A stretch of DNA of 61,473 bases, the filler included, from Candidatus Babelota bacterium (GTDB taxonomy: Bacteria > JAGOBX01): the NCBI GenBank assembly GCA_017999075.1. It is 8 parts of 8 records of this genome, joined end to end, with 100 filler letters (N's around TTAATTAATTAA, not from the genome) between each part and the next. Parts side by side here need not be neighbours in the genome. Positions count along the whole stretch, not along the records: positions 1 to 25,069 come from JAGOBX010000004.1; 7 more parts are not named here. One strand, given 5' to 3'. The position numbers were made by a program, and so were the translations under genes. Of this stretch, positions 9,228 through 25,169 are shown piece by piece. Numbering within the stretch: position 1 is the first letter of the stretch; the number at the start of each line of letters is the position of its first letter. The notes beneath the pieces were generated by a model. It saw only the letters and a list, made by a program, of their open reading frames with translations. It ran no database searches and was not told where the DNA came from.

Positions 9228-10028
9228 TTACCGGCTTCCAACCTGATTTATAACCTGCCCAAGGGCAGAATCTTGTGATTGAATTATCCTTGAATTCGCT
9301 TCATATGCGCGGTTAACTTCAATCATTTTTACCATAGCGTTTACTACGTTTACATTAGAACGTTCTACATATCCCTGACGAACTATAACATTATTCCCAT
9401 TAACTGTTTCTGGTTCGCCCGCTTCTTTTGTAGCATAATACAAATTTTCTCCGATTTTACGCAGTCCGTTTTTTTCCTGAAATCTGACTATTTTAAGCTG
9501 ACCGAGTTTGCGTTCAGTTCCTGCGCCGTTATATGCATATAATTCACCAAGTTCGTTCACTGCAAAAGGTTCATTTCCAACTTTAATCGGATTATTATCT
9601 ATTCCTAAAATTATTTGTCCCTGATGATTGGTTAAATATCCCTCGCTATTCATAACAAAACTTCCATCGCGCGTATATCTTTCTCCGCCTCGCGTCTGAA
9701 CTGCGAACATACCTTGGCCGAATAACGCCATATCAAACCTGTTTTCAGTAAACTGTAAAGGACCTTGATTATGATCAACTACTATAGCATCAACAGTAAC
9801 GCCAGTTCCAAGTTTACCTACTCTCGGACGTAAATCAATTGAACCGCCCGAAGTCAGCCATACATTATCTTTTAATCTTAATTCTAAATATTTGGGGAAT
9901 TCTCTGTATACAACATCGTCTTTTTTGTAGCCTGCTGTATTGACATTGGCAAGATTATTTGCTGTTACATCAAGCGTTGCTTGATTTGCCAGCATTCCTG
10001 ATGCGCTGGTGTAAATACCTCTTAACAT
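9228..10028 (-). CDS. flgF: Flagellar basal-body rod protein
   Basis: MLRGIYTSASGM, ANNLANVNTAGYK, YTRDG, ERSNVN; directly upstream of flgG. Confidence 0.85.
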   Translation of the reverse strand: MLRGIYTSASGMLANQATLDVTANNLANVNTAGYKKDDVVYREFPKYLELRLKDNVWLTSGGSIDLRPRVGKLGTGVTVDAIVVDHNQGPLQFTENRFDMALFGQGMFAVQTRGGERYTRDGSFVMNSEGYLTNHQGQIILGIDNNPIKVGNEPFAVNELGELYAYNGAGTERKLGQLKIVRFQEKNGLRKIGENLYYATKEAGEPETVNGNNVIVRQGYVERSNVNVVNAMVKMIEVNRAYEANSRIIQSQDSALGQVINQVGSR

Positions 10029-10460: not shown

Positions 10461-11966
10461 TTACTCATATATCCCTGTCGATTTTTTAATATAATCTTTA
10501 ATTTCTTCACCCATTTCAGAATCAATTTTTATCGTATCATAATCTATTCTTTGATTATTTAAAAACTGAAAAATCAATTTGGTTTTATTTTCTGTCCCAG
10601 GCATGATTCCGCAAAAGAAAAAATCCATTTTTTCAAATTCATCCGCAGCTATCGCAGTAAAAGGATCAGTAAGATTAAGAATAAGAAATATAACATCATA
10701 TTTATCTATACATAAATTTTTTTTAAGTTGCCTGATTTTATCAAAGATATCTTCTCCATAACTATTGATATAAATATTAACTCCTCCGAACATATCTGTA
10801 AAAACCTCTATTTCAGATGGTTTTGACGCCAAACTATTTTTTTTTAATTTACTTTTCTTATATTCAGGCCGAATATTCATATTTTTATAAATCTTATCAA
10901 TAATTTCAAAATGTTTTTCCGGAAGATAAAAAACATTTTTTTTAGGGGGTTTCAGATATAAAAATGACAGCATCAAGGTTTCTCTTAAAACTTTATCCTG
11001 CTGAATTTTTTTAAATTCTATTTTCGGAATTCTTAACAGCATTAACCCGCAATCTTTAAATCCGTATTTATGCGCAGCTTTTTGGGAATAAGGGTGAGTG
11101 GTTACTGCTTGAGAATATAATCCATCAAATCCTCGTTTCACAGCCTCATCTATCCGTTCTTGTTCTAATTGATTAAAACAACCTATACCTCTGTACTTTG
11201 GTTTAACAAACGAAACTCCGACTTCTGCCACATTATCAAAAGAATCCGGTTTTAATGCTGTATGACCTATTATTTCATTAACATCAGATACCGCTACTAT
11301 AGAAATCATTTTATTGGATTTGTTATATTCTCTGACTTTTTCAGGATAATAAATATCCGGATTAGGATAAGTATATCCATACGCGCTGTATGCGCATTTT
11401 GAAACATCAATAGCTTCTTCTTCCTTCATCAGCCTTATATTAAAAGTACATTTTATTTTTTCTTTTTTTTCAGTATCAGCAGATTTATTTTCCGTTTCAA
11501 CAATTTCTTTTTTGAATCCTTTGAAAGCGTCTATTGATTTATAAGGAAAATTTTTAACAAGATGAGTTTCCTTCCCCTCGCCGCCAAGATTATGAAATGA
11601 CACGGAATCAAAAACTTTTTTCATTAAAAACAACCCCAAACCCTTGGCAGGTTTATCCACATCAATTTTTTCCGAATCGTATTCTTCAACTAATTCCGGA
11701 TCAAACGGCTCGCCTTTTTCTTTAATAATAATTTTAATTCCCACTTCATCGTTAATGAATACCATATCAAAAGTTTCATCTTCAGATTCAGCATATCCGT
11801 GTTTTATAACATTAGTAACAGCTTCTTCCGCTCCGATTTTAATCTTGTTAATATCTTTCTGCAGAAACCCGCGTCTCTGACACATATATTCAACTGTTGA
11901 AAAAATGAGATCAAGGTATGAAATATCTACAGGCAACGTCAATTTTATTTTTGAATTCAATTCCAT
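10461..11966 (-). CDS. RsbW-like anti-sigma/Ser kinase ATPase domain fused to a GNAT-like domain
   Basis: EEAVTNVIKHGY, FDP and GLGLFLMK in the N-terminal ~140 aa; FVKPKYRGIGCF acetyl-CoA motif A. Confidence 0.75.
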   Translation of the reverse strand: MELNSKIKLTLPVDISYLDLIFSTVEYMCQRRGFLQKDINKIKIGAEEAVTNVIKHGYAESEDETFDMVFINDEVGIKIIIKEKGEPFDPELVEEYDSEKIDVDKPAKGLGLFLMKKVFDSVSFHNLGGEGKETHLVKNFPYKSIDAFKGFKKEIVETENKSADTEKKEKIKCTFNIRLMKEEEAIDVSKCAYSAYGYTYPNPDIYYPEKVREYNKSNKMISIVAVSDVNEIIGHTALKPDSFDNVAEVGVSFVKPKYRGIGCFNQLEQERIDEAVKRGFDGLYSQAVTTHPYSQKAAHKYGFKDCGLMLLRIPKIEFKKIQQDKVLRETLMLSFLYLKPPKKNVFYLPEKHFEIIDKIYKNMNIRPEYKKSKLKKNSLASKPSEIEVFTDMFGGVNIYINSYGEDIFDKIRQLKKNLCIDKYDVIFLILNLTDPFTAIAADEFEKMDFFFCGIMPGTENKTKLIFQFLNNQRIDYDTIKIDSEMGEEIKDYIKKSTGIYE

Positions 11967-14333: not shown

Positions 14334-17300
14334 TTATAAATATTGACCTGTTTTACTTTCCCGGCATTTTCTTATTTTTTCAGGAGTGCCCTGTTCTACA
14401 ATTTTCCCTCCATCATCTCCGCTGCCAGGTCCCAAATCAATGACCCATTCAGCATTTTTAATCAAATCAATATTATGTTCAATAACAATAACTGTATTTC
14501 CTTTCTGTGTCAGTTTTATAAGTAAATCCAGCAGTTTCTGTATATCTGCAGAATGTAACCCGGTAGTCGGTTCATCCAGCAAGTATAAAGTTTTGCCTGT
14601 ATCGTTTTTGCATAACTCTTTGGCAAGTTTTATTCTTTGAGCTTCACCGCCGGAAAGAGTTACGGAATTCTGGCCAAGTTTCAAATACCCCAGTCCGACT
14701 TCAATGACTACTTTTAAAATCTTTTCTATTTTTCTGTTACCTTTAAATAAATTCATTGCCTGATGCGCATCCATTTCCAAAACGTCAGCAATAGTATTCC
14801 CTCTATACTTAACTTCAAGAATTTCAGTATTAAACCGCTTTCCACGACATTCAGGGCATTCAATCCATATATCATTCATAAAATGCATTTCAATATTTTT
14901 CCGTCCGCCACCCTGACAAGCTTCACATCTTCCGCCTTTAGAATTAAAACTGAAATAATTTTCAGGTAATTTCATTTTTATCGCATCTTCAGTTTTTGAA
15001 AATTCTTTACGAATCAAATCAAATAATTCTATATATGTTGCAGGATTAGAACGGGGTGTTCTACCGATAGGCGCCTGAGTAACAGTAATAATTTTGTCAA
15101 TATGTTCCTGCCCTTCAATTTTATCAATATCTGTGTTATATTTATACCCGCCAAAAAAATATGCGTCAAGGGCAGGAGCAAGTGTTTTTGATACCAAACT
15201 GCTCTTACCGCAACCACTCACTCCTGTTACACAAATGAATTTGCCAAGAGGAAAAAAAACATTTATATTTTTAAGATTATTCAATCTGCAATTGTATAGC
15301 TTCAAATATTTTTGTTCATTATTAAAATTTCTGCTGACTGAAGATTTTACTGTCAATAATCCGCTTAGATATTTACCTGTAACAGAATTTTTATTTTGTA
15401 TAATATGAGCAGGTGTTCCATATTCAACAATATGCCCGCCATTTTCACCTGCTTCAGGTCCAATTTCAATCAACCAGTCAGCTTCTTTCATTGTTTCTAT
15501 ATCATGTTCAACAACCAGAACAGAATTACCGGAATCCCTGATATTTTTCATGGTATTTATCAGCAGGTGGTGGTCTGAAGGATGTAATCCAATCGAAGGT
15601 TCATCAAGAACATATAATAAATCAGTTAAACCGCAATTAAGCTGAGAAGCAAGGCGGATCCTTTGCGCTTCGCCTCCAGATAACGTCGGCGCAGTTCTGT
15701 CAAGCGTAAGATAATTTACTCCTATTTCACAAAGCTGTTTCAATCTCCTAAAAAGTTCAGCTATAATATCTTCGCTGATTTTATAATGTTCTTGTTCAAG
15801 ATTTTCCTGTAAGCCTGCAGTCCAGTTCATCAAATTCCTTATACTCATCTGAGCGGCCTGCGGATATCTTATTTCTGCAACTGTTACCAATCTGCCTTCA
15901 ATATTCAGTCGTTCACCTCTGCAATCGGAACATATTTCATTTTGCATAAACTGCATATAAAATTTTCTGCTCGCTTCTCCCTGTGTATCTCTAAACATTC
16001 GTTCAATATTATTTACAGCGCCAAATACCGGACGCGTAATTTCACCTTTCCTGCCGCGTGCGGATGAATATTTAAAAATAACTTTTTCCCCATCGCTTCC
16101 ATATAATGCTTTATTCTTAAATTCGGCAGGTAGATCTTTCCATGGCAATTCCAGATTTACATTCATAAGCTCGGCAAGCGCAATCACTTCTCCTTTCCAC
16201 CAGTTACCTGTTGGGTTTTGTATTTGCTGACGCAAATTCCCATACCACACAGATGCGCCGTCAAGCAGAGATATTTCAGGATTACTTACTACTAACTCAG
16301 GTAAAACAGTCAAAGTATATCCAAGCCCTTTACATTTTTTGCACATTCCCTCATGATTATTATAGCTGAAATACGAAGATGTCAGATCAAAAAATATTCT
16401 GCCGCAATGATAACATTTATTTCTCGTATGCAATATATATTTTTTACCATTAACAATAATACCTAACGCGCCCCGTCCTTTAATCAATGCATTACGAACA
16501 ATTTCTTTTAATTTTGTTTTGAATTCTCTACCTGCGTCATCAGCGCCAATTACAATATCATCAATTTTCTCATCATTTTCCGCATAACATATTGTTATTT
16601 TATTTTTTATTGATAATTCAAATAATAAATTAATAATTTCATATTCTGATTTGGGTTGAACAGCAGAACCGCAATCAGGACAGTGGCGTATTCCTATTCT
16701 GCTGTAAAGCAATCGCAAATAATCATAGATTTCTGTCATTGTTCCTACTGTTGAACGAGGATTTCTATTTATAGATTTTTGTTCAACTGCAATTGCAGGA
16801 GGTAAGCCGGATATCTTATCAACATCAGGTTTCTCGAATTGCTCAAATGACTGCCTGCCTGTTGTAGAAAGTGAATCTATGAACCTGCGCTGACTCTCAG
16901 CATAAATTGTATCAAACACAAGCGAAGATTTGCCGCTGCCGCTTACACCTGTAACAACGATTAATTTATTTTTAGGAATTTTCAGAGAAATATTTTTTAA
17001 ATTATGATGCCTGCAGCCAGATATGACTATTTCATTATCTGTATGTTTTTCTTCAGATTTATTCACTGAATCCAATTTTTTTTCTTCAGTTCCAATAATT
17101 TTCGGAAAAAATTCATTTTTTAACTTTTCAAAATCAGACTCAGAATTTTTAAATTCTTCAATATTTATCTCATTTTTCTTATTTTCATAATTCCATTCAG
17201 ACCAATGATTAAGCCATTCCGGAACTTCAAAATGTCTTACTCTATCATAACACGGAATATATGGTTTAATGCTTATAACAGGAGTTTTATCAAATGCGTC

Positions 17301-18137
17301 TATTTCAGTAATTTCAGCTGTCATTGTATCAAAATTTATTTTTTTTATCCGGGCGGTTGTCAATGCAATAGGGTTTGGACGTACCGGAGAACGTGAAGCA
17401 AATATTCCGGTGCGGGGAGCTTTTTCATACGGAGGATTACATTGAACTGCTTTTCTATATTTTTCTTCGTCAAATCTGCTGAACCACCACAAAACTTTTA
17501 TATGCGAAAAATTCTTCAATAATTCTATTTTTTTATTAAATTCTTCATTAAATTTCAACAAAGTTTTACCTGATTCATTATATATGCTTCCAATTTGACT
17601 GATTTCAATTTTTTCATTAAAAGAAATTTCGTGGTTCAACAATTTATCATCAAAATTTTTAATCATACTTTTTTTTTCAAAATCCATTCGCCATTCGCTA
17701 TAAATATTTTCATTTTCAGGCAATTTTTGGTTTTTAAAATTATTATATTTACTGACAAAATCTTTATATGAATTATCTTTTTGAAAAACTGAAACATCTT
17801 CTATTCTGATTCTGTCTTCAATTGGAAAATATGGTTTAATATCAATTATAAAATCACTGTCATCTGCAAAACAATTATCTAATTCTATTAGTCCTTTTTT
17901 TTCGTTAATTCCAATAATTCTGCATACCTGACAATAAATGAGGTTATCATCAAAAAAATCCTGTATATCAGTTTTTTTTAAACAGACATATTTTTTGTTT
18001 TCATTCGGATATGTAAACAAAATAAGATGACTGAATTTATCAAGAAACTTTAAAGCATCAAAAAAATCTTCTTTTATAAAACAATAAACTGAATTTTTTT
18101 TATAAATCTTACCTATAGGATTCAATATAAAATTCAT
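14334..18137 (-). CDS. Fusion of two TrmO/TsaA-like domains with a UvrA-family ABC ATPase
   Basis: GIFASRSPVRPNPI and two IKPY motifs at the N-terminus; then two Walker A (GVSGSGKSS, GVSGCGKSS), two LSGGE, LDEP and CxxC zinc motifs. Confidence 0.88.
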   Translation of the reverse strand: MNFILNPIGKIYKKNSVYCFIKEDFFDALKFLDKFSHLILFTYPNENKKYVCLKKTDIQDFFDDNLIYCQVCRIIGINEKKGLIELDNCFADDSDFIIDIKPYFPIEDRIRIEDVSVFQKDNSYKDFVSKYNNFKNQKLPENENIYSEWRMDFEKKSMIKNFDDKLLNHEISFNEKIEISQIGSIYNESGKTLLKFNEEFNKKIELLKNFSHIKVLWWFSRFDEEKYRKAVQCNPPYEKAPRTGIFASRSPVRPNPIALTTARIKKINFDTMTAEITEIDAFDKTPVISIKPYIPCYDRVRHFEVPEWLNHWSEWNYENKKNEINIEEFKNSESDFEKLKNEFFPKIIGTEEKKLDSVNKSEEKHTDNEIVISGCRHHNLKNISLKIPKNKLIVVTGVSGSGKSSLVFDTIYAESQRRFIDSLSTTGRQSFEQFEKPDVDKISGLPPAIAVEQKSINRNPRSTVGTMTEIYDYLRLLYSRIGIRHCPDCGSAVQPKSEYEIINLLFELSIKNKITICYAENDEKIDDIVIGADDAGREFKTKLKEIVRNALIKGRGALGIIVNGKKYILHTRNKCYHCGRIFFDLTSSYFSYNNHEGMCKKCKGLGYTLTVLPELVVSNPEISLLDGASVWYGNLRQQIQNPTGNWWKGEVIALAELMNVNLELPWKDLPAEFKNKALYGSDGEKVIFKYSSARGRKGEITRPVFGAVNNIERMFRDTQGEASRKFYMQFMQNEICSDCRGERLNIEGRLVTVAEIRYPQAAQMSIRNLMNWTAGLQENLEQEHYKISEDIIAELFRRLKQLCEIGVNYLTLDRTAPTLSGGEAQRIRLASQLNCGLTDLLYVLDEPSIGLHPSDHHLLINTMKNIRDSGNSVLVVEHDIETMKEADWLIEIGPEAGENGGHIVEYGTPAHIIQNKNSVTGKYLSGLLTVKSSVSRNFNNEQKYLKLYNCRLNNLKNINVFFPLGKFICVTGVSGCGKSSLVSKTLAPALDAYFFGGYKYNTDIDKIEGQEHIDKIITVTQAPIGRTPRSNPATYIELFDLIRKEFSKTEDAIKMKLPENYFSFNSKGGRCEACQGGGRKNIEMHFMNDIWIECPECRGKRFNTEILEVKYRGNTIADVLEMDAHQAMNLFKGNRKIEKILKVVIEVGLGYLKLGQNSVTLSGGEAQRIKLAKELCKNDTGKTLYLLDEPTTGLHSADIQKLLDLLIKLTQKGNTVIVIEHNIDLIKNAEWVIDLGPGSGDDGGKIVEQGTPEKIRKCRESKTGQYL

Positions 18138-18582: not shown

Positions 18583-18611
18583 TTGACACAATCATTTATT
18601 TATATTAAAAT
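18583..18611 (+). promoter_or_regulatory. sigma70-type promoter of the cyclase gene pair
   Basis: TTGACA (18583-18588), 17 bp, TAAAAT (18606-18611). Confidence 0.55.
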
Positions 18612-18653: not shown

Positions 18654-21600
18654 ATGGCTAAAAAAACTGTAATAAAAAAATCAATTATAACTGGACTAAT
18701 AATAAGTTTAATAGCCTGCATATTTTGTTTAGTAATTGACAATCTTGCATTATTAAAAAGAATAGAATTAAAATCTCTTGATTTAAGATTCAAACTTAGA
18801 CCTCAAATCAAGATGCAACAGGATTTAGGGTTTCTTGATTATGATGATCCATCAATTGATTTATTCGGATTATGGCCTTGGAACCGCAACAGACAGGTTG
18901 CTTTAGTTGATACATTAAAATTTTACAACTCAAAAGCTGCCGGATATGATGTTTTTTTTACTGAAAAAAGCAACATAGTTTTTACTCCTGACTATTTAAC
19001 AACTTTAATAGAATCACCCGCAAGATATTACAGCCAATTTATGATAGAAAGCACTCCAAATTCAAATCTTGCAAAATATAATTCAGTTTTCTCACAAGCA
19101 GAACAAAAAAATTTAATGTTGAAAACACTTGATTTATCTTACAAAAATTATGATTTAGATTTAGAACAGTCTTTTGCAAAAGCTAAAAACATATTTCTTG
19201 CGCAATTTATGGAAATGCCGAGCGAAGATGTACTTCTTCCTCCAAAAAAAGGGATTGCCGAAAAAACAAAATATCATCTAAAAAAAATATTATCAAAAAT
19301 TCCTTTACTCAACAAATTCGTCAAATCTGATAATGATGAGTCACTCATATTTGATGAAATTCAGAAAACAGTAAAAAAACGAAGAATGAACTATACCGAT
19401 GAAAAAAAACTTGCTTTAGAAGAATTAGAAAAAACCATCAATACAGATACTTCAGTTCAATTTAAAGATATTTATAAAAAACATTTATTTAAAACAGTTG
19501 ATATCGGAGCTCCATTATACAGGTTCATTAAAGCTTCTGCAGGAATTGGATTTGCCCAAATAGTTGAAGATATGGATTATACTGTGCGTTTATTTCCAGC
19601 ATTTTTATATTTTGACCGGCACATTCATCCTGCGCTTACTTTAAAAATGGCGTCCTATCTTCTTGACTTTAATATGAACGATATTATTGTAAAGCCAAGC
19701 GAATATATTTTAATAAAAAACGCCCTTGAATACGGTACAAATAAACGAAGCGATTTCAAAATACCGATTGATGACAAATGTCAGTTGTTAATGAACTGGG
19801 CTGGAGAATTTGACAACACTTATTTTCATTATTCATTCAAAACAATTGCTTTATATTACGCTTACATTAAATGCAAACAAATAGTTTCATATTATCCTGA
19901 CAATCCTGAATTTTTAGATTTAGCTTTCAACAAACTCAAAAATTATCTTGTAAATGAACAGCTTGTCGAATCTAAACTTATTGAAAAAATTGCCGGCACA
20001 ATCGCCATTGCAAAATGTTATGAATCTGAAATCGTTAGAAGTAAAATTTCTGATATTGAAACATTAAAAAACAATTTAAAAATCGAATCATTAAAACCAT
20101 ATTTTGACGAAGCTTTTTATTCAACGAAAATAGGAAACGAAATAGCAAAACAGTTCGAATTAAACCAAAACTTGAATTATAAAGATTTTATAAAATCAAT
20201 TGATTATAATTTCGATCAGGAATACATCAAAGAAATATTTGATAATATTGAATGGTTTGCAAAAAAAAACAGATTAAATGATATAAAACCTTTTTGTTTT
20301 CCTGAAAAACAAACTATTAAAGTTTTCGGCAAACCAATTAAAGTATCTCCCACTTATCTTGAAAATAAAATTTTTATGATTGGACTTACAGGAATAGGAA
20401 CAATAGATTTGAATCCTATGCCTTTCGAGCAAAGTTGTCCTATGGTTGCTTTGCACACTAATGCCATAAATATGTTTCTTACCAGGCAAGCATTAAGTTT
20501 TCCTCCTGAATGGTACAAATATGTTTCAACAATATTTTTGGTGGTGTTAATCGGTTTGCTGTCTGTATTTTTATCTGCCACTAAAGGACTTATTGTATCA
20601 ATATTTATAAGTTTAATTTATACATTAGCAGTATGGTTATACTGGACTAAATCCGGAGTATGGCTGAATTTCGTAACACCTCTTTTGTCAATATATATTT
20701 CTTATCTAATAACTGCAATTTATAAATTCATTCAATCTACTGCAGAAAGAAAAAAAATAAGAAACATATTTTCTACAATGGTTTCTCCTGCTGTATTAAA
20801 AGTTATGGAAGATAATCCTGATTTACTTTCATTGACAGGTGAAAGAAAAGCTGCTACTACAGCATTTTCAATGGTATTCGGGTTCAATAAAGTAACAAGT
20901 TCAGTTGCTCCTGATTATCTAAGTAAAATATTAAGTGTATATCTTACACCTACCAGCGAAATCATAATGGATTATGACGGTTACATAGATAAATATGAAG
21001 GGCATATAATAATGGCTGATTACGGAGTTCCGCTTGACGATCCGGGCAATGCCTGGAAATGCGCATATTCAAGCGTAGAACAACAGCTTGATATTGCAGC
21101 ATTCAGATATTATGTTTATGTTAATTACGGCGTCAAAGTCACAACAATGCTTGGATATAATTTCGGATATGTCTCTGCTGGAAACATGGGTTCTGAAAAA
21201 AAAATGCAGTATACTGTTATGGGAGACGCTGTAAATGTTGGCGCAAGATTTATGCCTGCAAACCTTATTTATAATACCAGAGTAATTACAGGAGGTTCTA
21301 CGTACTACAAAATAAAAGATTTCGCAGAGCTCAGAAAACTCGACAGACTTTTATTAAAAGGAAAAACAACTCCAACTGAAATTTACGAAACTCTTGGATG
21401 GAATAAAGACAAATATATTGAATTGCTTGGACACAAACCAGTTCCGGAATCTTTGCGTACAAGATGGAAATTCGCGCCTGGAGGTAAAGTATTCGGATAC
21501 TTCAACTTTTGGAAACAGGCCGAAAAAGATTTTACTCACCCTATGATTTCAAAAATTTCAAAATTTTTCGAAAATCAACTTATTTCAAATGCTACCAGAA

Positions 21601-22274
21601 TTGAAAATGCGAATAAAATATTCTTTTTAGAACTAATTGATGAAATCAATAAAGTTATAAAAAGTTATGGGATAGATAACCCCATCATAAGAAAAGACAG
21701 TCACGATACACTTCTTGAAGACTGGTTGAATAAAATAGTTCTGCCTGTGCTTGACAAATTAAGGACAGATTCTGAAAAAATGCAGGAATTTCACAATATT
21801 CAACTTTTAGAAAATAAAATTTTAATGTTTAAAAAGAAACTTGAATTAAAAGATAATGTCGATGACCTGATTTTATTTTCGTTTGATCATATCAAAGAAT
21901 TTATAATAAACAACAAAAATAATGAAACTATTGAAACAATAAATGCAAATGAATCTCAGTTGGAACTTCAGTATCAAACTGCTGTGGAATCCCTTATTTC
22001 TGAAATATCTGTAAATCCTATGGATTACAGATTAATGATGGCAGAAATAGGAAGTATTACAGATTCTCTACGGAAAGTCAGAGACTTATACGAAGATTCT
22101 ATTCAAAAATACTGGAATAGACAATGGGATGATGCAATATCAGGTTTTTCGAAATGCGTTGAAATTATTCCTGATGATCCGGCTTCGTTATGTCTGCTCG
22201 AAAGGGTTAAATATATGAAAGATAACCCGCCAGCAGATAACTGGCAGGGTGAATTTATTCAAACGAAAAAATAA
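18654..22274 (+). CDS. CHASE2-TM-class III adenylate/guanylate cyclase with C-terminal TPR-like domain; lacks both metal-binding Asp (C2-like)
   Basis: CHASE2 motifs GLWPWNR and YDVFF; three TM helices; cyclase AGNMGSEKKMQYTVMGDAVNVGAR and KGK; C-terminal WDDAI..PDD..WQGEF. Confidence 0.9.
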   Translation: MAKKTVIKKSIITGLIISLIACIFCLVIDNLALLKRIELKSLDLRFKLRPQIKMQQDLGFLDYDDPSIDLFGLWPWNRNRQVALVDTLKFYNSKAAGYDVFFTEKSNIVFTPDYLTTLIESPARYYSQFMIESTPNSNLAKYNSVFSQAEQKNLMLKTLDLSYKNYDLDLEQSFAKAKNIFLAQFMEMPSEDVLLPPKKGIAEKTKYHLKKILSKIPLLNKFVKSDNDESLIFDEIQKTVKKRRMNYTDEKKLALEELEKTINTDTSVQFKDIYKKHLFKTVDIGAPLYRFIKASAGIGFAQIVEDMDYTVRLFPAFLYFDRHIHPALTLKMASYLLDFNMNDIIVKPSEYILIKNALEYGTNKRSDFKIPIDDKCQLLMNWAGEFDNTYFHYSFKTIALYYAYIKCKQIVSYYPDNPEFLDLAFNKLKNYLVNEQLVESKLIEKIAGTIAIAKCYESEIVRSKISDIETLKNNLKIESLKPYFDEAFYSTKIGNEIAKQFELNQNLNYKDFIKSIDYNFDQEYIKEIFDNIEWFAKKNRLNDIKPFCFPEKQTIKVFGKPIKVSPTYLENKIFMIGLTGIGTIDLNPMPFEQSCPMVALHTNAINMFLTRQALSFPPEWYKYVSTIFLVVLIGLLSVFLSATKGLIVSIFISLIYTLAVWLYWTKSGVWLNFVTPLLSIYISYLITAIYKFIQSTAERKKIRNIFSTMVSPAVLKVMEDNPDLLSLTGERKAATTAFSMVFGFNKVTSSVAPDYLSKILSVYLTPTSEIIMDYDGYIDKYEGHIIMADYGVPLDDPGNAWKCAYSSVEQQLDIAAFRYYVYVNYGVKVTTMLGYNFGYVSAGNMGSEKKMQYTVMGDAVNVGARFMPANLIYNTRVITGGSTYYKIKDFAELRKLDRLLLKGKTTPTEIYETLGWNKDKYIELLGHKPVPESLRTRWKFAPGGKVFGYFNFWKQAEKDFTHPMISKISKFFENQLISNATRIENANKIFFLELIDEINKVIKSYGIDNPIIRKDSHDTLLEDWLNKIVLPVLDKLRTDSEKMQEFHNIQLLENKILMFKKKLELKDNVDDLILFSFDHIKEFIINNKNNETIETINANESQLELQYQTAVESLISEISVNPMDYRLMMAEIGSITDSLRKVRDLYEDSIQKYWNRQWDDAISGFSKCVEIIPDDPASLCLLERVKYMKDNPPADNWQGEFIQTKK

Positions 22275-22297
22275 TTGATTACGGGATTCTGAAAATT

Positions 22298-25069
22298 ATG
22301 GCTACAAAAAAACAAGTAAAACTGAAAACCTTGATTCTTAAAACTCTATATATAACCGCTTCTGTTTTTTTACTGATTCTAATACTTGATTTTTTCGGTT
22401 TTTTTTCATCTCTTGAATTTTTAACTATTGACGCAAGATATACAAAAAGACTTCTGAAAAAAACTAAAATTTCAGATAAAATAGTTACAATAATAATAGA
22501 CGATGACGCTATAGAAAAAGTGGGAAGATGGCCGTGGTCTTGGGAAAAATTGAAAATGATAGTGGAAACAGCTGACTATTATTCTGCAAAATTCTGCGCT
22601 TTCATAGATTTAAATTTCAACAAGGAAAGCGAAGTGTATTTCAGCGAAGAAGGTTCAGCAAATTCGAAATCAATAATAACAAATTATATTATGCAGGATT
22701 CAAATGATACTCAAACTATACTTGGCGCTATTGAAAATAAAAATAAAGAAATGATCAGCGCAATTAATAAATATAAAAACATATTTTTATGCAGCAATTT
22801 TTATATACCTGAAATCAAATTAAATACCAAACAATTTAGCGCTTTGACTGAAATTAAAAAAAAAGATATAATGATTGACCGGCTGGATAATATTTCTTCA
22901 ATGAAAAAATATATAATTCCTAACACTGAAAATAAAACCAAATTAACAACTGCAATTGATTTTATCCCTCCATTAAAAAATCTAAATGAAATAGTTAAAG
23001 GGGTCGGATATAACCGGATATTTCCAGATGCAGACGGAAGAGTCAGACATTATTCTATGGCCGCAAATTATGACGGGAATGTTTATCCTTCTTTAGTAAC
23101 AAGTTTAGCCGCAGGTTATTATAAATGTCCTCTTGATAAAATCAGAATTATTCCAGGAAAATATATTGAATTACAAGAAGGGGATACTTCTATATCCAAA
23201 TTCCCTTTACAAATACCAATAAATGAAAAAGGTATGATGACTATAAATTGGGCTGGAACTTACAAGGAAACATTTAAACATTTACCCTATAATTTAATAG
23301 CATATCATTATTCATTTATAAAAGGAAAACAATATTTAAGCAATTATAAGGATGCCTGGAATATGCCAGGCTTCAGCCCTGATATTGTGTACACAAACTT
23401 AAATTCAGAACTTATTAAGGCAGGTTTGGTTACACCTTCTTCAGCCGAATCAATATCTCTTTCATTGTTTATAGCATGGCTTATGGATTATTTTAATTCT
23501 AATGGCGCGGATTATATGACTTTCATATCTCAAATGGCTGCCATGGGTCTTGAAGATACTACAACAATAAAAAATATGTGGATTCAAATAGATTTTAATA
23601 ATAAACTTTTTGCAAGGTTAAATGAAACCAGGAAAATACCTGATTTTTCCGAGTTTATAAAAGAACTCGGCCTTAAAGAATATGAAAAAGAATTATTTAT
23701 TCGCGAAGGTTACAGGCAAACAATATTCTTTTTCCTTAAAGGCATGATAGATACAGTCAGGCCCTTATATTTTCCTGAACCATCAAATTTAAAAATCGGA
23801 TTGAAAAATGAGTACATTTCTCTGCTTGAACTTTCGGATAAATTTATTTTTACTGGACTTACTGCAACAGGACTTGCATCATTCAATCCTACTCCTTTTG
23901 AAAACAGATATATGATGTTAGGTTTGACTCCTAATGCTTTCAATACAATTATAACAAATCAATTTTTAAAATTCATAAATCCGTTTTTTTCATATTTACT
24001 ATTGATTATAATAATGATTTTTATTTCGTTTTTAACATTAAAATCTTCTTTAACAGGCACTATAGTATCAATAATTTTATTTGTATTATATCCTTTTACA
24101 GCATGGATTTGTTTTGAATACGGCCTTATTATTCCTATTATATTCGTTGAAGCAAGCATTCTATTATGTTATTTCGGAGCTCTTACTTATAAATACATTG
24201 AACTTCAACGTGAACGAAAAAAAGTACGCGATATGTTTTCAACAATGGTGTCTCCTGAAGTCTTAAAAATTATAGAAGAAAACCCTGATAAATTCAATAT
24301 TTCAGGCGACCTTAGAGAAGCTACTATGTTTTCTTCAGACGTATCAGGTTTTACTACGATTTCAGAAGGAGTTACGGCTCAGGAACTCGCTAATATTCTC
24401 AATATATATCTAACTCCTATGAGTAACATTATAATGAAATATAACGGCTATATTGATAAATATGAAGGAGATGCTATAAAAGCAGATTTCGGAGTACTTC
24501 CTCTTCAGACAAGTTCAAACTGGGAACTTGATAAAGAACATCATTGGAAATGCTGCTATGCAGCTCTTGAACAACAGGAAGAATTAAGTGTCATTCAAAG
24601 AATGATTCAAATAAAATTCGGAGTTAAAATCTCGGCTCGTATTGGAGTAAACACCGGAGTTGTCTCTGCCGGAAATATGGGTTCTGAAAAAAAAAGACAA
24701 TTCTCTGTCATGGGGGCTGCAGTTACTCTTGCAGAAGAACTTGAACCTGTAAACAAATTATTTGAATCATGGATAGCAATAGGCCCTGAAACTTATAAGA
24801 AAGCTGAAAAATACATAGAAACACGATTGTTGAATTATCTTGAATTTCATGAAGGCGAACCTCTTCTTCCTGTTTATGAATTATTGGGGTGGAATATTGA
24901 TAAATTTATGGAATATTGGAAAGATAAACCTGCTCCATCTCTAATCCTTGAAGGTATAAGAAAAATGCCGCCAGAAAAAATTCTCGGATATTATCATTAT
25001 TACAGCAATAAAAAACTGGATGATACTGATTTTATAATTCAAATAAAAAAATTCTTTACAGATTTGTCT
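22298..25069 (+). CDS. CHASE2-TM-class III cyclase, 3' end cut by the contig end; lacks the Asn/Arg pair (C1-like)
   Basis: GRWPWS, DADGRVR; cyclase FSSDVSGFTTISE, DKYEGDAIKA, RIGVNTG, AGNMGS; runs into the linker. Confidence 0.9.
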
Positions 25070-25169
25070 NNNNNNNNNNNNNNNNNNNNNNNNNNNNNNN
25101 NNNNNNNNNNNNNTTAATTAATTAANNNNNNNNNNNNNNNNNNNNNNNNNNNNNNNNNNNNNNNNNNNN
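25070..25169. other. Artificial contig linker
   Basis: N44-TTAATTAATTAA-N44 (stops in all six frames). Confidence 0.98.

Follow-up and report, generated by a model that had tools for sequence, protein, structure and literature searches.

The gene pair and its catalytic residues

The stretch of DNA described here (the window; 61,473 nucleotides (nt) in all) comes from a Candidatus Babelota bacterium (GenBank assembly GCA_017999075.1), and on its first contig lie two adjacent genes whose products combine a CHASE2 sensor with a class III nucleotidyl cyclase domain. Gene 1 encodes protein 1, the type-1 (C2-like) subunit, and gene 2 encodes protein 2, the type-2 (C1-like) subunit (Table 1). Neither chain alone carries the full catalytic set of a class III cyclase; the set is complete only across proteins 1 and 2 together. 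The window has a G+C content of 30% and consists of eight contigs in a chain. The joints between them, each made of 44 N, TTAATTAATTAA and a further 44 N (a linker with stops in all frames), are artificial, and genes flanking any joint are therefore not known to be neighbours. One entry in the list of open reading frames (ORFs), 22298-25117, is an artefact of translating N across a joint.

Both proteins matched CHASE2 (Pfam PF05226; 107.2 bits, E 1.3e-30 for protein 1 and 86.3 bits, E 3.4e-24 for protein 2, cut-off 26.3) and Guanylate_cyc (Pfam PF00211; 29.3 and 48.5 bits, respectively, cut-off 21.9). Protein 1 runs from a first transmembrane (TM) helix, TM1, through CHASE2 and three further TM helices to the cyclase domain and a C-terminal helical domain. 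Its hydropathy peaks fall at residues 10-28, 624-642 and 671-689; the middle helix of the three, at about 645-665, was read off the sequence. One TM helix before and about three after an extracytoplasmic CHASE2 domain would give both proteins the topology of the CHASE2 receptor type. The two are colinear end to end at 28% identity, with the lowest values in CHASE2 and roughly 45% across the cyclase domain, and at the level of sequence this confirms them as colinear CHASE2 class III cyclase paralogs.

In a class III active site, one subunit supplies the metal-binding Asp residues and the other supplies Lys/Thr and Asn/Arg. Residue assignments rest on alignments with two cyclases of solved structure, CyaB (3r5g) and Cya2 (2w01, 6fht); the best matches among solved structures were CyaB 3r5g, at 1.4e-18 and 3.1e-19, and Cya2 constructs. 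Most of what the initial annotation had claimed for the window agrees with these alignments and with the ORF coordinates: the genes are co-oriented and 23 nt apart, they share an architecture (an end-to-end alignment, with the same Pfam domains in the same order), and the named residues are where they were said to be. Protein 1 has M740 and H784 at the two metal positions (codons starting at 20871 and 21003), has no RIG Arg, and keeps K780, T854, N861, R865 and the KGK motif; protein 2 keeps D681, D725 and R781, and has T810 and E814 in place of the transition-state Asn and Arg. The spacing between the two Asp positions is likewise the reported 44 residues, in protein 1 and protein 2 alike. 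One claim had to be narrowed. The division of the residues into two sets stands in that the losses are reciprocal, but protein 2 still has K721 and S803, and its second set is thus lost only in part.

The C-terminal domain of protein 1 was modelled with AlphaFold2 as all-helical (predicted local distance difference test (pLDDT) 93.9; predicted template modelling score 0.82). Foldseek gave no match for this domain at E <= 0.001, and with VIA-align only its final ~60 residues matched tetratricopeptide repeat (TPR) proteins (Z 9.4, root-mean-square deviation 3.1, 60 aligned), at a Z level that is common for helical repeats; the hairpin at the end is TPR-like. NCBIfam had no match for either protein, and Pfam had none for the type-1 C-terminal domain, with sub-threshold TPR matches only in one type-2 orthologue. 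The type-1 and type-2 C-terminal domains are homologous to each other (hhalign probability 100, E 4e-43, 280 columns). Their tails differ, with an invariant PP..WQGEF.QTKK in type 1 and PP..DW.GAW in type 2. The nearest canonical relatives are mostly 700-930 amino acids (aa) long and, judged by length alone, seem too short for such a domain, which is for this reason presumed to be lacking from them. Dimerisation and regulation are both possible roles for it.

Table 1. Coordinates and residues of the cyclase gene pair, with other features of the window
Feature	Gene 1 / protein 1	Gene 2 / protein 2	Other position	Strand
Gene and subunit	18654..22274; type-1 (C2-like); 1206 aa	22298..25069; type-2 (C1-like); 924 aa present, C-terminus cut by contig end		+
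Sensor module	18681..20720; TM1 residues 10-28; CHASE2 ~29-623, long insertions; three-helix membrane segment 624-689	22331..24181; TM1 residues 12-30; CHASE2 ~31-562; three TM helices 563-628 (hydropathy)		+
Cyclase homology domain	20721..21443; residues 690-930	24182..24910; residues 629-871		+
C-terminal helical domain	21444..22271; all-helical; residues 931-1206, ~280 aa	24911..25069; start only, broken at contig end		+
Type-2 equivalent of the C-terminal domain			L001:16041-16946	
First metal Asp	M740, FSM (20871-20873), lost	D681 (24338-24340)		
Base-recognition Lys	K780 (20991-20993)	K721 (24458-24460)		
Second metal Asp	H784, EGH (21003-21005), lost	D725 (24470-24472)		
RIG Arg	M832 (21147-21149), lost	R781 (24638-24640)		
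Thr position	T854 (21213-21215)	S803 (24704-24706)		
Transition-state Asn	N861 (21234-21236)	T810 (24725-24727), lost		
Transition-state Arg	R865 (21246-21248)	E814 (24737-24739), lost		
KGK Lys	K902	His, lost		
Intergenic spacer			22275..22297; 23 nt between gene 1 and gene 2	+
Promoter-like site TTGACA-17-TAAAAT			18583..18611; consensus match 11/12, upstream of gene 1	+
Artificial contig joints			25070-25169, 30316-30415, 35536-35635, 40751-40850, 45951-46050, 51141-51240, 56314-56413	

Conservation, linkage and descent of the two types

A database search with protein 1 returned 78 further type-1 proteins, each standing for a 90%-identity cluster, or 79 with protein 1 itself; a type-2 set, also of 79, was compiled from the search with protein 2 and the type-2 proteins found in the protein-1 search. 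Asp was observed at neither metal position in any type-1 protein (0/79), nor was the RIG Arg (0/79), and the Lys, Thr, Asn, Arg and KGK Lys were present in every one (79/79). The second Asp position is His in 69 of the 79, and the first metal position is variable (M, L, S, K, A, G, W). Among type-2 proteins, D, K, D and R are present in 79/79 and the fifth position is always Thr, Ser or Cys; the Asn is absent throughout (0/79), and the Arg position is occupied by Glu in 78 and by Lys in one. No exception occurred in either set, and chance falls far short of explaining such a pattern. All seven residues were present in the nearest other CHASE2 cyclases (31/31 in the protein-1 search, 37/37 in the protein-2 search), and the full set was found in 91 of 93 further CHASE2 cyclase representatives, drawn from 50%-identity clusters.

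The eighth residue, the Lys of KGK, behaves differently. Its loss from protein 2 had been counted with the others in the initial annotation, and it is indeed absent there, with His in its place, but the loss is not diagnostic: the Lys is kept in just 47 of those 93 representatives (P0229-P0321), while 46 carry V, A, Q, R or others in otherwise complete relatives. It is thus a poor marker of catalytic competence.

A genome scan, using one genome per species, yielded 77 loci: 39 with type 1, one with type 2 only, and 37 with canonical cyclases only. The type-1 residue signature holds at all 39 type-1 loci, and a type-2 partner is present in all 39 genomes. In 36 of these 39 species the type-2 gene directly follows the type-1 gene, on the same strand and always in that order. 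The arrangement was direct in 35; L022 was added as the 36th, where the first ~150 residues of type 2 run to the contig end. At L005 the contig stops just past type 1, and type 2 opens another contig of the same assembly (L040). Nearly all 39 species have both genes as full-length ORFs. Hosts with a name, all of them uncultured, comprise Hydrogenedentota, Nitrospirota (among them magnetotactic lineages and Thermodesulfovibrionales), Lindowbacteria, Syntrophales and Planctomycetota. The pair closest to proteins 1 and 2 is that of L003 (95% identity in both cyclase domains), followed by L002 and then by L001, a Hydrogenedentota assembly. A fused single-chain form did not appear in a search of proteins of 2112-5000 aa, which is weak evidence. 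The CHASE2-cyclase pairs with reciprocal losses, for which the initial annotation had proposed a search of genomes, are adjacent in 36 of 39 species, and the degeneration of orthologous pairs, which might have proved random, is strictly reciprocal in 79/79 type-1 and 79/79 type-2 proteins and likewise in the genome pairs.

A quick IQ-TREE tree was built from 113 cyclase domains (39 type 1, 36 type 2 and 38 canonical), with the pair from the window included and rows of fewer than 200 residues left out. Type 1, type 2 and the canonical domains each lie on one side of a branch, with Shimodaira-Hasegawa-like approximate likelihood ratio test support of 100, 99 and 99, respectively; each type has a single origin and forms a single old clan. 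Pairwise distances within the two subunit types, compared over 34 pairs, correlate at r = 0.90, a value reached in 0 of 2000 Mantel permutations. Because kinship alone predicts part of the correlation, we read it as joint inheritance and not as co-adaptation. Mean cyclase-domain distances are 0.38 for type 1, 0.33 for type 2 and 0.29 for canonical relatives, and the cyclase domains of the two subunits of a pair share 42% identity. With the within-type distances so near the canonical value, both subunits are seen to have been under purifying selection after one old duplication. The tree places the origin within the bacterial CHASE2 cyclases, and the split is thus convergent, rather than ancestral to that of the animal enzymes.

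These results bear on whether the two genes are merely redundant paralogs in decay, by pseudogenisation or relaxed selection, with a complementarity that is coincidental. The type-2 gene of L010, which contains an in-frame stop, and the wide variation at the first metal position of type 1 can both be cited in favour of decay. On the other side stand full-length ORFs in nearly all 39 species, single old clans, co-divergence, cyclase domains about as conserved as the canonical ones, and identical losses in every member. Pseudogenisation was rejected because the reciprocal losses are invariant, the ORFs intact, the clans single, the two types co-divergent and the domains conserved; we find it hardly credible.

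The proposed heterodimer, its rivals and known cyclases

Taken together, the sequences make it likely that genes 1 and 2 specify a single heterodimeric class IIIb nucleotidyl cyclase of the receptor type, each gene providing one subunit. Synthesis of cyclic AMP (cAMP) most likely requires both proteins, joined in a mixed pair. A C1/C2-like heterodimer was the reading originally offered for the window, and it has gained support from the reciprocal loss, the adjacency in 36 of 39 species, the single origin and co-divergence of the types, and perhaps from the interface of a structural model. The proposed mechanism is as follows: the two cyclase domains would associate in the head-to-tail manner common to all class III cyclases, creating two pseudo-symmetric pockets. 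To the active pocket, type 2 would contribute the metal Asp residues D681 and D725 and the phosphate Arg R781, and type 1 would contribute the purine-selecting K780 and T854 and the transition-state N861 and R865. This composite pocket would be the single active site, and its Lys/Thr pair suggests that it converts ATP to cAMP. The second pocket, with no type-1 metal ligands and no type-2 Asn/Arg, would be catalytically dead, and each subunit alone is predicted to be inactive.

The complex was modelled in three runs from the two cyclase domains and their alignments, with ATP and two Mg included. Interaction prediction scores from aligned errors (ipSAE) were 0.76, 0.79 and 0.79 for the heterodimer and 0.00 for the best control; the heterodimer runs shared at least 68% of contacts, and partner pLDDT was at least 81. 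In the calibration, performed without ligands and with other alignments, 58 of 80 solved complexes attained the same ipSAE mark, as did 2 of 110 mismatched pairs. The modelled interface is head to tail, with type-1 residues 841-861 and 778-783 (K780, T854 and N861 among them) facing type-2 residues 701-725 (K721-D725 among them); on the other side the roles are reversed. The model would fit a physical heterodimer of type 1 and type 2, but its pass may reflect likeness only, because class III dimers have already been solved.

Class IIIb cyclases, as Linder and Schultz reportedly defined them in 2003, carry Lys at the first substrate-specifying position and, at the second, Thr rather than Asp. 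A Lys/Thr pair in class IIIb cyclases points to ATP; guanylyl cyclases have Glu plus Cys, Gly or Ser at the base-recognition positions. K780 and T854 of protein 1 align with the Lys and Thr of CyaB 3r5g, and by this Lys and Thr, present in all 79 type-1 proteins, protein 1 belongs to class IIIb as so defined. The composite site is probably specific for ATP, with cAMP as the expected product of the pair. An active heterodimer with some other product (cGMP, or another cyclic or linear nucleotide) has in its favour that specificity rests on two residues, K780 and T854, but this Lys and Thr match an adenylyl cyclase, CyaB (3r5g), and we regard another product as very improbable.

Several findings weigh against the heterodimer. 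Type 2 is unlinked from type 1 in two of the 39 genomes, those of L014 and L019. In the L014 genome, type 2 stands at a contig start and has the signature DKDRTAEG. The L019 genome, of Magnetocorallium type, holds the most divergent pair (L019/L084 and L078/L086); in its type 1 the second Asp position is occupied by Asn instead of His (SKNSTNRK), and its unlinked type 2 has Glu/Lys for Asn/Arg (DKDRSEKG). The type-2 gene of L010 (L010:8162-11686, a Nitrospirae assembly) aligns over its full length and contains an in-frame stop, such that its ORF starts at 9752; the stop may stem from an error in sequencing, from recoding or from recent pseudogenisation. Gene 2 of the window is itself incomplete. 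Contig 1 stops at 25069, and the gene is therefore cut after 924 codons, with ~200 C-terminal residues missing (orthologues have ~1125-1170 aa). The heterodimer model alone cannot separate a preference for heterodimers from one for homodimers. Finally, type 2 keeps Lys, Ser/Thr and both Asp, and is without only Asn/Arg, so weak activity of a type-2 homodimer is possible.

That last point can be developed into a different account of the pair, in which a type-2 homodimer is a real enzyme of low activity and type 1 is a dead pseudo-cyclase that regulates or signals separately and gives no catalytic residues. Type 2 does keep the metal Asp, the RIG Arg, Lys and Ser/Thr, and type 1 cannot bind metals. 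Type 1, however, loses exactly D, D and R while K, T, N and R stay unchanged in 79/79 proteins, an invariance that would serve no purpose in a regulator contributing nothing to the site. Type 2, for its part, lacks the Asn in 79/79 and the Arg in 79/79, and the modelled interface sets type-1 K780, T854 and N861 against type-2 residues 721-725. Mutagenesis of Rv1625c is said to have shown that losing the transition-state Asn or Arg cripples homodimers. We consider the type-2 homodimer unlikely. It could also be that neither protein, nor the complex, makes a cyclic nucleotide, and that the cyclase-like domains serve as nucleotide-binding or scaffolding modules. Each domain alone does fail the full catalytic-residue test, but the pair jointly conserves a complete active-site set, without exception, in ~80 proteins of each type. 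Such joint conservation of the full site is what selection on catalysis predicts, and it makes a non-catalytic pair quite improbable.

If the heterodimer is accepted, its second pocket calls for comment. The dead pocket is lined by type-1 H784 and by type-2 K721, S803, T810 and E814, and it is still conserved: the type-1 His in 69/79, the type-2 Glu in 78/79, and the type-2 Lys and Thr/Ser/Cys kept. A structural or regulatory function is possible for it, and an allosteric role is conceivable. Since each subunit has its own diverged CHASE2 and its own C-terminal domain, the output probably depends on both sensors; perhaps the two diverged sensors act in coincidence detection. A much broader reading would join all of these elements: an ancient, phylum-spanning bacterial heterodimer, an animal-type design that evolved independently, a dead pocket that is an allosteric site for a nucleotide or other ligand, and two CHASE2 sensors forming a two-input logic gate. 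As a whole we hold this to be possible but rather doubtful.

The mammalian cyclase structures 1AZS and 1CJK (VC1:IIC2) were among the sequence matches of protein 2, and the likeness of the proposed heterodimer to C1/C2 of mammalian membrane adenylyl cyclase is twofold. One domain has the Asp residues and the phosphate Arg and the other has the Lys, the second base residue, the Asn and the Arg; and one active site is accompanied by a degenerate pseudo-symmetric pocket, which in the mammalian enzyme is the forskolin site. The available passages of PMC8815786 (Broser 2022) describe the transmembrane adenylyl cyclase as following this split-residue, one-site principle. The mammalian enzyme is, however, one polypeptide of class IIIa, whereas the pair consists of separate genes and polypeptides and belongs, by its Thr, to class IIIb. 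The two 6-TM bundles of the former (TM1-C1-TM2-C2) are replaced here by CHASE2 with 1+3 TM helices per subunit, and regulation by G proteins does not apply to the pair. The alpha/beta form of soluble guanylyl cyclase is alike in using two homologous polypeptides for one site, its second site being non-catalytic. It differs in being eukaryotic, cytosolic, regulated by haem and nitric oxide and specific for GTP, with H-NOX, PAS and coiled-coil domains; the pair described here is bacterial and predicted to be membrane-bound, with CHASE2 and Lys/Thr.

Among bacterial enzymes, homodimeric CyaB (P. aeruginosa, 3r5g) and Cya2 (Synechocystis, 2w01) share the catalytic fold and are the closest solved sequences, and the nearest homodimer-type relatives in the databases share the layout of CHASE2 followed by a cyclase domain but have a complete residue set per chain. 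In homodimeric bacterial cyclases every catalytic residue is found on one chain and the two sites formed are equivalent; in the pair, by contrast, the set is split, and a C-terminal helical domain (~280 aa) has been added. Guo and colleagues are said to have reported in 2001 that inactive Rv1625c mutants, lacking either the metal Asp or the transition-state Arg, regain activity as a one-site heterodimer. The complementation logic is the same, but that was a laboratory construct, whereas the arrangement proposed here would be natural, old, widespread and made of two genes.

In the parts of PMC9552081 (Schultz 2022) that were available, bacterial class III cyclases are said to homodimerise, and Guo et al. 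2001 is cited for the dimerisation of Rv1625c; heterodimers are not called unknown in those parts. CHASE2 cyclases of S. meliloti are named in the abstract of PMC13001267. The passages available from PMC8815786 treat heterodimeric class III cyclases as a feature of higher eukaryotes, and describe chytrid RGC1 or RGC2 together with NeoR. The chytrid proteins, according to those passages, resemble the pair in being obligate heterodimers of separately encoded sensor-cyclases, each with a different sensor; they differ in being eukaryotic, and in that no catalytic residue is missing from RGC1 or RGC2, so that complementary losses do not account for heterodimerisation there. No natural bacterial class III heterodimer was found in searches of full-text literature, reviews in subscription journals being outside that scope. 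One candidate, gcyB/gcyC of R. centenum, was set aside: in the portion of the source available, the genes are called non-catalytic or putative guanylyl cyclase subunits, and not a complementary class III pair.

The genes thus appear to represent a conserved two-gene bacterial cyclase with a eukaryote-like split, found in dozens of uncultured bacterial species. Viewed singly, either gene would pass for a dead cyclase, and gene-by-gene annotation and surveys would therefore misjudge both. If the heterodimer is real, one-site asymmetry evolves readily by duplication and reciprocal loss, and the pair would offer a simple, separable system for asking what purpose the second pocket serves. It would also allow experiments on how the inputs from two different extracellular sensors merge into one cAMP output.

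Surroundings of the pair

No terminator-like site was seen in the 23-nt spacer separating the two genes. The 516-nt AT-rich region 5' of gene 1 contains 53 promoter-like sites, as compared with 41.7 +/- 5.8 in shuffles. Because the region is so crowded with such sites, TTGACA-17-TAAAAT is to be read as a consensus match and not as a mapped start; it is at best a weak candidate for the promoter of gene 1.

Neighbouring genes were scanned at 33 loci with a pair, covering 70 of 112 flanking ORFs. No universal neighbour was found among these 70 ORFs, and only the pair itself is conserved. Lineage-specific neighbours include an MshEN-T2SSE ATPase (7 loci), giant FecR-domain proteins and a methyltransferase. 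The MshEN-T2SSE secretion/pilus ATPase occurs at Nitrospirota-type loci, downstream of the pair in L006, L008 and L010 and upstream in L030, L035, L036 and L038; this adjacency may reflect a lineage-specific functional link to pili or secretion. A GAF protein precedes the ATPase in L030 and L035, the two loci whose second upstream ORF was scanned. Upstream of the pair, L006 and L008 have giant FecR-domain proteins, and L010 has an OmpH/Skp gene.

In the window itself, no cyclic-nucleotide effector was seen among the genes of the 61,473-nt stretch, other contigs included. Part of the stretch is present in six DNA sequencing runs from three studies; a look for RNA data sets containing it found none. 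Farther from the pair lie genes for ResB/CcsA-like cytochrome c assembly, the flagellar rod and ring, and two-component systems. Upstream of the cyclase pair and divergent from it, 14334-18137 (minus strand) encodes a 1267-aa protein in which an N-terminal TrmO_N domain (tRNA methyltransferase O) is fused to UvrA-like DNA-binding and ABC ATPase parts, an unusual fusion. A second composite protein, of 501 aa, is encoded at 10461-11966 (minus strand) and joins HATPase_c_2, a kinase domain of the anti-sigma-factor type, to a GNAT acetyltransferase.

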